Shown one piece after another: positions 16,491 to 47,385 of a DNA stretch of 64,000 bases. The notes below the pieces were generated by a model. The model searched no databases, was not told the DNA's origin, and saw nothing but the letters and a program-made list of their open reading frames with translations. The stretch's first letter is position 1. Each line of letters opens with the position of its first letter. The stretch is from positions 43,648,001 through 43,712,000 of the forward strand of contig OX597826.1 in NCBI GenBank assembly GCA_951406725.2, written 5' to 3'. This DNA comes from Octopus vulgaris (Eukaryota). Both the position numbers and the translations under genes were made by a program.

Positions 16491-16525
<35 letters not shown>

Positions 16526-16552
16526 ATTCAAATATATATGTATATATATATT

Positions 16553-16584
<32 letters not shown>

Positions 16585-17265
16585 TGTATGTATGTATGTA
16601 TGTATGTGTGAGGTACCTATGAGGTGAAGTACAGGTACTCAGCCCTGAGTGCATTTGACCTTAAATCAAAATCTGGTGTAAGTCGGTTACGCAATTTCTG
16701 TTCCTTTGTCAGCATATTTAATTGCATATTACGGTCTGTACTTGCCTTACGCTATACTTTGAAGATTATATAAAATGTGTATGTGTATATATGCGTATAT
16801 ATATATAATAATGAAGGATAAATGGATGCATGATTTTATGAAATAGCCAGCATGTAATAAAACATACAGGTAAGAAGTAATACAAAGAAATAATTGCATA
16901 AATATAATTATAGTGAGAGCACTAATATATATATATATATATATATAAGCATTTATATTGTATATATATATGTTTGTGTGTTTAGATGTATAAATATATG
17001 TATGCATACGTATGCTATATGAATAAGCTATAAACTGTGTCAAGACTTATGCCAGATAATGTAAGATCCCTAAATATCAATGAGTACAATTAAGGATGGC
17101 ATCAGTAAGTCGAACAACGTAAATATTACATCAAAGAGGATAACGAAGAAACAAATACATAAATATCACAATAGCAACAATTTTATCTGAATATACAATG
17201 ACATCCCATCATCAGCCACTTTACTGGAAATCACTATGGTTTCGGTACACACGCACACACAGTAG

Positions 17266-17302
<37 letters not shown>

Positions 17303-17372
17303 CACATATGTATGTATGTTTGCATGTATGCACGTGTGTGTACGTATATATGTATGTGTGTTTGTAAATATA

Positions 17373-17410
<38 letters not shown>

Positions 17411-17412
<2 letters not shown>

Positions 17413-17814
17413 TAAACAGTAAAAATAATTACAGACATGGACAAGAACATGAAACGCCACAGAGACGACACAAGAACCACAGGACGGGACATTCGAAGCC
17501 CTCAGTCATCAGTCAAGAACCAGATCATCTTAGCAATTTCGGCTGATTAATCTTGAGATTGCTCCGATATGGCCAGCCCGCCACGGGAAATCTAAGCCAA
17601 GTGCATTAGATCCCCTGGAAGAAAGCTTCGAATGTATACAACACGAGGACGGAAAACGAACGAAGTACACGAACAAAAATACAGAATACGTGACAACAAT
17701 AAGAATACAAAAACGTAAAAACAATAACGGTAAAAATAAAGTATAAAAAATAAACAACAAAACAAAACCAGGACGTAGGACAAGGGTCTTTCGACAGGAC
17801 GAATTGAGCATGGG
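17411..17814 (-). mobile_element. ~400-bp non-coding element inserted in (TA)n, carrying a rearranged hammerhead-like domain
   Basis: Bounded on both sides by (TA)n. The minus strand is U-rich around a structured core at 17489-17635. Confidence 0.6.
17489..17635 (-). ncRNA. Candidate non-circularly permuted (pseudoknotted) hammerhead ribozyme
   Basis: Minus strand: AGCAA-UC-UCAAGA uuaa UCAGCC-GAAA-UUGCU (13 nt) UCUUGA-CUGAUGA-CUGA, enclosed by an 11-15 bp helix. Confidence 0.6.
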
Positions 17815-17847
<33 letters not shown>

Positions 17848-17932
17848 TATATTTAGATTTATATATCCAGCTATATATATACATACGCAATCATATATTG
17901 TATACGTAGATTAATACATGTATGTATGTATG

Positions 17933-18002
<70 letters not shown>

Positions 18003-18122
18003 GAGCGAGAGAGAGAGAGATATATATGTGTGTGTACACATACTTATATATACGCCCATAGACCGCTTATGTATAATGCCCATACATATTTATAATGAGG
18101 AAGAAGCCTGCATACCAATATT

Positions 18123-18159
<37 letters not shown>

Positions 18160-18408
18160 CTTCATCCAAAATTCAGCATCCGTAGAGTCGTTGAGCTCCC
18201 TGGACTGTATTGATTTCTACTCTTACTTCTCAAGTGAATTAGTAGATAAGAACGTACAATTCTGAGGACGAATCACAAACGGCATAATGAAACATTATAC
18301 AAAGGAATTTACATACGTACATCATACATACACACGTACACTAACACAAATATATGTAGATAGAGAAAGAGGAATATAGAGATAGATAGATAGATAGATA
18401 GATAGATG

Positions 18409-18459
<51 letters not shown>

Positions 18460-19183
18460 GGATAGATACAGATTGGGTGAAAGAGAAAGAGAGAGCGACC
18501 GAAGGATGGAAATAGTGATGGCGGTGGGTATCCTCAATCACGCACTTAAGGCCAGACACTCATACACACACACTCATACACACACACACATACCTGCTTA
18601 CACGCAAATGGCATCTGCTTTCCTAATAAAGCTTTGTTAAGTACACTCCATCTGCAATGAATTTCTTCCGGTATTCAACAGTAATATTACAATTGTATCC
18701 TCAAACAATTCCAATTAGTCGACTAGTTGAAGAAGTACAATGCTCAAAAGCTTCCTTAAGGAGTAAACTCAGAAGATATACATGTGCGACTGCGATTAAC
18801 TATACACACACACACGTGCAAACACACACACACACACACACACACATACTCGCACGCACACACTCAATCACACTGACGCACACATATACACTCATACCGA
18901 CACAAACATACTTATTATATTGACTCTAAGTTTTGATAAAGGAATGTATTCGAGTATGGCTTCCAGTTTTTTTCCATAGTTTGAATAAGTTTTTGAAGCA
19001 ATTTATTCAAAAGAATCTATTGTTTGTACATTATGAAAGACTGAATAGCGAATAAAAGCTAATGTATTTAAGTACATAGCCAAATAACCAGAGTGTTGCT
19101 CACTTTTGTTGCTCTATTTCTAAACAGCTGAACAGATACAACGTCAAACGCCGTATTTGCAGTGTACTTAACATTTTTTGAAT

Positions 19184-46474: not shown

Positions 46475-46641
46475 TCCTTGCTTCTAAAGGCACAAGGCCT
46501 GAAATTTGTAGGGAGGAGACTAGTCGATTACATCGACCTCAGTGTTTCATTGGTATTTAATTTATCGACCCCGAAAGGTTGAAAGGCAAAGTCGACCTCG
46601 GTGGAATTTGAGCTCAGAACGTAGCGACGGGCAAAATACCG
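46475..46641 (-). mobile_element. Body of a family-B SINE split by a LINE (head resumes at 48901-48955)
   Basis: Ends at gcaaaataccg; the continuation taagcatttcgcccggcgtgctaacg lies on the far side of the LINE. Confidence 0.85.
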
Positions 46642-47385
46642 TTTATCACGTCCTCCCGGTACTTGTCCACCTGGAGGTCCGGACCAAACCAGACTCCAAG
46701 CAATTTAACCGATCTTTCTGTCCAGCGCCATACAATGCTGTCGGTTGGCATGGACCTGCCTTTCCAGATGCCGAGCTGCAGGCCCACCGACTTGTCCTGC
46801 TGAATTTTTGCTTCTGTCACCGCTTCGTACTCATTTAAGGCAGTGTCGATCAGCTCGATTTCCGAGTTGTCCGACAGTATTACGTCGTCCGCATATGCTG
46901 AAACGAACCTTCCGCATCCTAAATCATGCGAGATACTGCTCGAAATATCCAACATCTTTAATAATGGCTTGAGAGCCAGCACGTATATATGAGGAGAGAG
47001 TGGGCATCCTTGACGGACGGAACGAAAGATACTAAACGATTCCGATAGGTAGCAGTTTACTTTACCACCAAACATATGTCGCTGTACATTGCAGTGATCC
47101 AGCCTCTGAAAACGGGACCGGAAACGGCCGCCACGAAGACAGCCTCCAAGTATTAATGGTCAACCTTGTCAAAAGCTTTCGATTGATCCAAATTCATCAG
47201 GGCCCCACTCATGCCAGGTTCCTTCCCTACCCTCTCCGTGATGTAGTACATGAGGTGGTGTTTGTCATGGATAGATCTTTGTGGGATAGCGCATGTCAGC
47301 ACATCGTCGACCAGCTTACCGACAACAAGTGCCAACCTCTTGGCTAACACCTTGGCCAAAATCTTATAATCTGCGTTCAGCGTGT
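46642..47385 (-). pseudogene. Reverse transcriptase fragment (Tx1/L1-like ORF2), frameshifted
   Basis: LNADYKILAKVLAKRL, LDQSKAFDKVDH, SVRQGCPLSP, SAYADDV, KLLGVWFG. Confidence 0.9.

Follow-up and report, generated by a model that had tools for sequence, protein, structure and literature searches.

Noncircular permutations of RNA were first described in 2023, in metatranscriptomes and metagenomes, by Eckert, Friedrich, Weinberg and Weinberg (PMC10085705), who divided the hammerhead ribozyme into three blocks, S, G, and C, each assumed to be uninterruptible. The closest described relative of the motif reported here, type SGC (HRIMA-1 and variants), has been validated in vitro as short single transcripts (0.007-0.19 per min) and is known solely from metatranscriptomes, with no example in the genome of a known organism; it typically has a 3-nt linker between stems I and II and a helix bridging these two stems that is sometimes joined directly to stem III (PMC10085705). 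The accessible part of that paper gives the core of the SGC descriptor as CUGAUGAG or CUGAUGAUG, with stem II directly after CUGANGA, and describes one extra base after A9 in SGC-1; a single extra base is also the documented insertion between A9 and G10.1 in those parts of the literature that are open to inspection.

Among animal repeats, non-LTR retrozymes are, in the accessible portions of their descriptions (PMC7229834; 10.64898/2026.07.22.740005), noncoding tandem units of up to 972 bp that have one hammerhead each and a GC content below 50% and that occur as monomers to multimers alongside Penelope-like elements (PLEs). Their hammerheads are of the circularly permuted type I, and their circular RNA has been demonstrated. 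Neptune-type PLEs and their pLTR hammerheads are characterized, in the open text of three sources (PMC4209133; 10.1101/2021.04.23.441226; PMC11167929), by 5' truncation, partial tandems, inverted copies, an optional tail of 30-40 nt, microsatellite (TA) targets, and an internal start of reverse transcription. Here we describe a repeat of the Octopus vulgaris genome that combines features of all three systems.

A Hammerhead Motif in Scrambled Strand Order

We analyzed a stretch of 64,000 nucleotides (the window), the minus strand of which carries at 17489..17635 what we read, from sequence, a layout descriptor, and covariation, as a hammerhead ribozyme motif of order S-G-C with a split block C, that is, in a scrambled strand order for which we found no animal precedent. 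The closing helix P0 (5' strand 17621..17635, 3' strand 17489..17503, all coordinates being on the minus strand; folding and alignment) encloses a hairpin, P1 (17581..17618; alignment and RNAalifold), which lies between P0 and stem II. There follow the 5' strand of stem II (17574..17578, with G10.1 at 17578), which precedes the cut site instead of following A9; the 5' strand of a bridging helix that we call PI (17566..17572), the counterpart of the I-II interaction helix of type SGC; the nonbulged strand of a predicted k-turn (17563..17565; 3n, G2n, A1n); and block S (17551..17562), which consists of a stem III strand, U16.1 (17558), C17 (17557), the predicted cut 17557|17556, and a stem I strand. 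A 4-nt linker from stem I to stem II (17547..17550) leads to block G (17533..17546), with the 3' strand of stem II (C11.1 at 17541), GAAA (17540-17537), and the other stem III strand. The bulged strand of the k-turn (17527..17532; 3-nt bulge, G1b, A2b, 3b) and the 3' strand of PI (17520..17526; covariation and RNAalifold) are succeeded by half of block C (17506..17518), made up of a stem I strand (17518-17513) and CUGAUGA (17512-17506), and by the 3' strand of P0, in which two bases after A9 are unpaired or mismatched in the window's family.

The original prediction had placed three hammerhead strands at 17563-17551, 17546-17532, and 17518-17502 of the minus strand, and these match our reading base for base. 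Its linkers of 4 nt and 13 nt between the strands, its closing helix (17635-17621 with 17503-17489), its extra hairpin (17618-17581 in our reading), and its cut site are likewise present, and to these we add helix PI, which was absent from that description. The hammerhead core is complete (CUGANGA, GAAA, UH, A15.1-U16.1, G10.1-C11.1), and stems I, II, and III adjoin it, with stem II abutting G12 but not A9. The block order is S-G-C, unlike the circular S-C-G order of hammerhead types I, II, and III. The 13-mer formed by the stem I strand and the core occurs once in the window, with 0.09 occurrences expected (one mismatch).

Rfam, whose models can represent neither the S-G-C order nor a double pseudoknot, gives no ribozyme match: all 57 matches at E <= 10 in 16500-18800 lie under the gathering score, with zero ribozymes among them, and six element loci searched at the gathering score gave 0 matches. 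RNAfold of the region is unremarkable (z = -1.84; 10 of 200 shuffles equally good), as expected for a fold that is a double pseudoknot, and single-sequence folding of the window copy does not recover the proposed nested fold. Sequence and covariation show a long hairpin, made up of PI, an internal loop, and stem III, with the strands of stems I and II and GAA in its apical loop. This loop pairs back with the strands that flank the base of PI, the upstream one giving stem II and the downstream one stem I plus CUGANGA, and A9 continues into the closing helix, not into G10.1. We infer that this structure corresponds to the published type-SGC fold with its ends joined and then reopened between A9 and G10.1.

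A Young Noncoding Element Inserted in (TA)n

The motif lies in a 404-bp, 5'-truncated, solo copy of a repeat that we call family A (17411..17814, minus strand; BLAST and unit alignment). This copy makes up about half of a 779-bp unit, is 99.75% identical to unit positions 376-779, and ends at the fixed 3' end of the family. Target repeats of (TA)n adjoin it at 17379..17410 (the element's 3' end) and 17815..17841 (the truncated 5' end), and the targeting of TA that had been proposed for the element is borne out by (TA)n flanks at 24 of 24 sampled terminal 3' ends of the family. When the 2.8-Gb genome of the octopus itself was searched with 17411-17814, all 40 scored matches were ~100% identical, out of 2684 first-look candidates.

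Family A is a very young and abundant noncoding tandem element inserted in (TA)n. Its units of 778-780 bp occur in solo, dimeric, and trimeric loci that have a fixed 3' end running into (TA)n and a variable 5' end, and successive units meet at a short TATATA that lies 146 nt from the predicted cut, on its downstream side. The longest ATG frame in doubled units spans 75-170 aa, with no long ORF. The element is not a tRNA SINE, because none of the five loci searched has a tRNA-derived head.

Seven Families and Covariation of the Fold

Six more families (B-G) in the same genome keep the hammerhead core, some of them with unrelated stem sequences. Family B, which is older and ~75% identical to A, was found beside a family A copy; C, D, E, F, and G came to light incidentally, in sequence flanking loci that had been retrieved with other aims, and single copies of further subfamilies are also present in the fetched loci. 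First-look candidates, which overlap between related families and are not copy numbers, amount to 2684 for A, 2474 for B, 4315 for C, 3160 for D, 2404 for E, 1949 for F, and 1764 for G. Unit lengths range from 637 to 885 bp among the families measured. The layout is common to all families (P0, P1, stem II 5' strand, PI, block S, short linker, block G, PI, stem I strand, CUGANGA, P0), apart from the clean absence of P1 in family G (L188-L207), a young family with a 637-bp unit and the smallest natural form of the motif, so hairpin P1 is dispensable. A descriptor of this layout (core, stems I and III, upstream stem II) matches 106 times in 749,600 nt and 0, 0, and 0 times in three dinucleotide shuffles; the 106 matches are not independent events, since the loci overlap and were mostly fetched by homology.

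Stem sequences divide the families into two lineages: A, B, E, and G (the window's lineage) and C, D, and F (the sister lineage). We counted the two apart because MAFFT, when run across both lineages, shifted stem II from its proper register. Aligned genomic copies reveal that stems I and III covary and that the core is conserved. For the window's lineage (12 rows picked by hand; 43 pairs), 88.5% of cells are paired, compared with 27-49% in slid controls, and 14 pairs are double-changed; for the sister lineage (11 rows, 22 pairs) the values are 94.6% and 15 pairs. As many paired cells were reached by 2 of 500 and 0 of 500 shuffles, respectively, counts that overstate significance and are not probabilities, because the rows, which were selected by a descriptor demanding the core, are related.

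Stem I of the window's lineage is 100% paired, with double changes in four of its six pairs, and PI has double changes in 5/7 pairs (3/6 in the sister lineage); RNAalifold recovers PI and stem III of the window's lineage unprompted. P0 is weaker in this lineage (68.2% paired), the two positions beside A9 being mostly unpaired. In the sister lineage, double changes affect 4/5 pairs of stem III and 5/6 of stem I, A9 is followed at once, in 13 of 13 rows, by the U-A pair that opens P0, P0 abuts P1, and P1 abuts stem II. Furthermore, the majority of copies found by BLAST alone keep the core, with N7 taking all four bases, and H17 among 81 copies is C in 67, A in 13, U in 1, and never G. On the basis of covariation across families in stems I, II, and III, the central claim of the original prediction, a noncircularly permuted and pseudoknotted hammerhead, holds, and the fold is almost certainly real and under selection.

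Sequencing runs of three other organisms contain 40-47% of the sampled words of one unit (L019 1126-1904), and close relatives of family A in related species are therefore probable. A metagenome scan with the pattern of the window's lineage returned seven matches, zero of them with the cut-site block, and scans of viral contigs with the patterns of both lineages returned 0 and 0; the pattern of families C, D, and F was applied to viral contigs only.

A Predicted k-Turn between Stem III and PI

In the window's lineage, the joint of stem III and PI reads, in each of the 12 rows, C, three variable bases, and GA along one strand and GA, G along its partner. The full k-turn consensus is found in 76 of the 81 copies with intact flanking motifs, many of which are near-identical, and the bulge varies freely. 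A standard k-turn is thus the predicted joint between stem III and PI in this lineage. As in the standard k-turn, in the accessible text of Huang et al. 2021 (PMC8191799), a 3-nt bulge is followed by tandem G-A and A-G pairs, -1b:-1n is C:G, and 3n is mostly G, the last two features being reported there to favor ion-induced folding, in Mg2+ for the G at 3n. Unlike the known k-turn, ours is a sequence prediction, and families C, D, and F do without it. The stem III originally proposed exists in both its strands, but its outer A-U pair is kept in only 6 of 12 alignment rows because the position belongs to the predicted k-turn, as part of which it is better read. The sister lineage has a purine-rich loop in place of the k-turn, often GAA opposite AGUA (L019 2982-3141, L138 1584-1746, L115 1510-1669), a loop that we take to resemble loop E. 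Since PI starts where stem III ends and has to return to the tips of stems I and II, a sharp bend would be needed at this joint, and the k-turn of the window's lineage would provide it by bending stem III against PI, closing the fold in cis.

The same pairings might instead form between two units, the apical loop of one docking into the internal loop of another tandem copy, which would make solo copies like that in the window inert. Covariation cannot separate cis from trans, units do occur in tandem, hammerheads of PLEs and newt repeats as a rule depend on dimers, and the loop-E-like purine-rich loop of the sister lineage need not bend. We nevertheless consider pairing between units unlikely, given that the conserved k-turn at the joint of stem III and PI fits a fold-back in cis, that stem III is long and stable, unlike that of dimer-dependent forms, and that the published type-SGC RNAs cleave as short single transcripts, some of them with the bridging helix joined to stem III.

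Stem II Is Probably Formed with an Upstream Strand

Two alternatives had been offered for stem II, CUGA with UCAG or upstream GGCUG with CAGCC, and it is the second that is supported. Its five pairs are kept in 12 of 12 rows of the window's lineage, where they are nearly invariant and show no double change; the helix is 97-98% paired, and three of the five pairs are double-changed within the sister lineage. G10.1-C11.1 is retained in all but one decayed copy. In addition, the upstream duplex is the stronger one in 12 of 12 representatives (-5.7 to -10.1 vs +1.1 to -4.5 kcal/mol). The CUGA/UCAG option is rejected, with 64.6% of cells paired and 405 of 500 shuffles as high.

These results bear on another reading, that the motif is an ordinary type SGC in which stem II is built from the bases after CUGANGA (CUGA/UCAG or, for families C, D, and F, A-GGGG with CCUUC), the upstream pairing being a fold that is inactive or serves for storage. 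An initial scan for a contiguous stem II, which allowed no extra base after A9, found no pair in 39 of 41 signature rows. A relaxed descriptor with one extra base after A9 yielded 60 matches, all in families C, D, and F and none in the window's lineage. The contiguous helix that can be drawn in C, D, and F has four pairs, often two of them G-U, with 78.2% of cells paired and one double change, and resembles published SGC-1 with its one extra base after A9 (PMC10085705, accessible part). Against this, the window's lineage is closed to a contiguous stem II because neither A9+1 nor A9+2 is a G that could face C11.1, the bases after A9 are already partnered in P0, and the upstream helix is both better paired and richer in double changes. 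An ordinary type SGC is accordingly very improbable, and the motif very likely uses the upstream stem II; the weak contiguous helix in C, D, and F might, speculatively, be a relic of a contiguous ancestor.

In two loci of the window's lineage (L038 2572-2729 and L203 1520-1640), the closing helix repeats the five pairs that make up stem II in families C and F, a hint that a duplicated stem II strand may have given rise to the split form.

Possible Traces of Cutting

Self-cleavage at the predicted site is to be expected with considerable confidence, and we looked at the ends of insertions for its traces. For family A, a query lying wholly downstream of the cut gave 30 loci, which represent 26 separate insertions. 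Eight of these 26 have 5' ends at 0 to +34 from the cut, five of them at 0 to +9, and one has its end in the next 126 nt upstream. Within -2..+10, a test window set after inspection of the data, there are 5/26 family A ends where a flat hazard predicts 1.1 (p 0.004) and 7/12 uncensored family E ends where it predicts 1.75 (p 0.0006), the 12 including the query's own copy and one internal deletion. This excess could also come from stalling at a structure or from a general surplus of short insertions. An inverted copy (L177) begins exactly at the predicted cut.

In family A, the remaining 18 of the 26 insertions continue beyond the predicted cut, and therefore many templates must have been uncut or re-joined. 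An internally primed circle would explain both the multimers and the fixed 3' ends that lie away from the cut; uncut tandem transcripts would do so as well, and our analysis favors a circular RNA intermediate only modestly. Part of the unit is contained in 20 of the 23 sequencing runs listed, none of which is recorded as RNA. Contigs of four runs, again none recorded as RNA, cover all 30 bins of the unit and carry no start or end information; contig starts located 3-4 nt before the cut are due to subfamily branch points, and no listed contig piece from these runs spans the cut by 31 letters on each side.

Insertions that cross the cut, together with a fixed 3' end situated 146 nt from the cut and not at it, would also suit a structure that derives from a hammerhead and now serves another job, such as PLE protein binding or a packaging or priming signal, with slow cutting or none. 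A published PLE hammerhead that required protein was dispensable for insertion in vitro, in the accessible part of its description. Such a change of function is nonetheless hard to reconcile with catalytic bases that are kept across seven families while N7, H17, and all stems change, with an H17 that is never G, and with 5' ends that pile up at the cut, and we regard it as highly improbable. Chance resemblance within a repeat, for which one could cite the missing Rfam match (uninformative here, as Rfam models cannot represent the order) and the folding z-score of only -1.84, is negligible, being already excluded by covariation, with double changes in every helix and 106 descriptor matches vs 0, 0, and 0 in shuffles.

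Probable Mobilization by Penelope-Like Elements

The reading that we favor, and hold to be probable, is a noncircular S-G-C hammerhead with its stem II strand moved upstream, carried by a noncoding, TA-inserted tandem family, that is predicted to cut itself after AUC and whose RNA is likely copied by PLE enzymes. Cleavage would release single units from the transcripts of tandem arrays, some RNA being ligated again or escaping the cut. On a (TA)n target that had been nicked, PLE reverse transcriptase would begin inside the RNA, at the UAUAUA junction, and its variable extent would generate solo, dimeric, and trimeric insertions that share one fixed 3' end.

The ribozyme families exhibit 5' truncation, partial tandems, and inverted truncated copies, which are hallmarks of PLEs, and they further resemble the Neptune-type PLEs and pLTR hammerheads cited above in their (TA)n targets, in the presumed internal start of reverse transcription, and in optional tails of ~40 nt, which we find at 11 of 31 ends of family C, 2 of 21 of family G, and a few ends of family B (0 of 24 in family A and 0 of 18 in family F). 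In contrast to PLEs as described in the open text of those sources, the element has no ORF and carries a full three-stem, permuted ribozyme, not a minimal dimer-type one.

The genome contains a very young autonomous PLE of its own (L091 1425-6668; G000:C16, about 20834900-20840200), Neptune-like, with a 765-aa ORF of reverse transcriptase plus GIY-YIG, an upstream 346-aa ORF without Pfam match, a C-terminal endonuclease, and TA targets. Its 105 scored matches are 91-100% identical, and its end runs into (TA)n, some copies bearing a tail of ~35 nt. This PLE seems to be without a hammerhead, because neither CUGANGA nor an Rfam match is present in its terminal repeat; in lacking the motif it differs from our element. 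A link to the TA-targeting PLEs of the Naiad group, which are reported, in the accessible part of the literature, to lack hammerheads, was considered; the PLE examined here is one with a C-terminal endonuclease. A second, more distant PLE family (L101 3582-5980, L064 1312-2540; 46% protein identity) also ends in (TA)n, and its 3' region has neither the hammerhead motif nor any match to the element. The possibility that the element is the pLTR of the young PLE was rejected, as there is no sequence or motif match. None of the 42 PLE-bearing loci contains an autonomous PLE that carries the ribozyme or whose pLTR shares sequence with the element, and no sister pLTR of the element was found in the PLE-bearing loci examined.

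One locus joins the two kinds of element directly. At L077 120-2560, a 5'-truncated family C element stands head-to-head with an older, 5'-truncated PLE, with no TA between them and TA flanks outside. This looks like a template switch within one insertion event and, as the only such chimera among the loci examined, is suggestive of PLE mobilization. Taking the ends, targets, and chimera together, we think it likely that PLEs mobilize the ribozyme families.

Relationship to Described Ribozymes

The element shares with type SGC the order of cut site, GAAA, and CUGANGA, the full core, a short linker (4 nt), and a bridging helix near the end of stem III (PMC10085705). Unlike in type SGC, the stem II strand lies upstream of the cut, A9 leads into the closing helix, stem III and PI are joined on both strands (by a k-turn in one lineage), and the setting is genomic repeats of an animal; block C, in which stem II of type SGC stands 0-2 nt from A9, is interrupted in the window's lineage. 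SGC descriptors, at least in the form accessible in that paper, would miss this lineage because they need stem II right after CUGAUGA, and the type I descriptors with which animal retrozymes were found cannot match the motif because of its S-G-C block order. With the non-LTR retrozymes of the animal literature cited above, the element shares a noncoding tandem organization, a single hammerhead per unit, a GC content below 50%, forms ranging from monomer to multimer, and co-occurrence with PLEs; it differs from them in that they carry a type I motif and have demonstrated circular RNA, which for our element is a modestly favored possibility. The motif would work like the hammerhead of a non-LTR retrozyme, yet is neither a type SGC, with its uninterrupted block C, nor the type I of animal retrozymes. 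A pistol-like hammerhead (Zhan et al. 2024, PMC11300833) also surrounds the hammerhead core with a pseudoknotted periphery, but in the accessible text its helix II loop pairs with an extra stem-loop and A9 is followed by G10.1-C11.1, an unrelated connectivity.

Our literature search, largely of papers available without subscription, retrieved no report of the split wiring or of a noncircular hammerhead in an animal, and no tested precedent for a helix between A9 and G10.1; the supplement of Eckert et al., accessible in part, might contain a split case. The rearranged hammerheads that the original prediction mentioned for Xenopus found no support in the literature searched, type SGC being reported from metatranscriptomes only. 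Xenopus does appear in the accessible part of a retrozyme preprint (10.64898/2026.07.22.740005), with type I motifs, and only 1 of 9 predicted Xenopus retrozyme dimers cleaved in vitro.

The chances are about even that all of the following applies: that the hammerhead, opened at A9/G10.1, has here its seventh natural wiring, one beyond the six permutations considered possible, and that it is the first noncircularly permuted ribozyme in a eukaryotic genome; that the k-turn closes the double pseudoknot and may put cleavage under the control of an L7Ae-family host protein; and that the ribozyme provides unit-length circles for at least seven retrozyme families spread by PLE enzymes. An animal genomic family that splits one block would widen the known tolerance of the hammerhead core. 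If the reading is true, the descriptors used for ribozyme censuses of animal genomes and PLEs miss abundant classes, and some TA-targeting PLE groups reported to lack hammerheads may conceal them in a similar way. The seven naturally varied families, one without the hairpin and only one lineage with the k-turn, form a test panel, and ribozyme switches could be engineered by way of the open A9/G10.1 junction and the k-turn.

Other Sequence Features

Units examined from families A, B, C, D, F, and G contain a long pyrimidine tract (L019 1905-2200, L077 660-840, and the L188 unit), and in several families (A, B, D) a CACGTG box lies upstream of the ribozyme, at a distance of a few hundred bases; tract and box could possibly constitute an internal promoter or a protein-binding region. 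Elsewhere in the window, the minus strand of 46617-47159 holds an open frame with a GCPLSP motif, which we take to be typical of LINE reverse transcriptases, and this segment is probably a LINE fragment unrelated to the ribozyme element.
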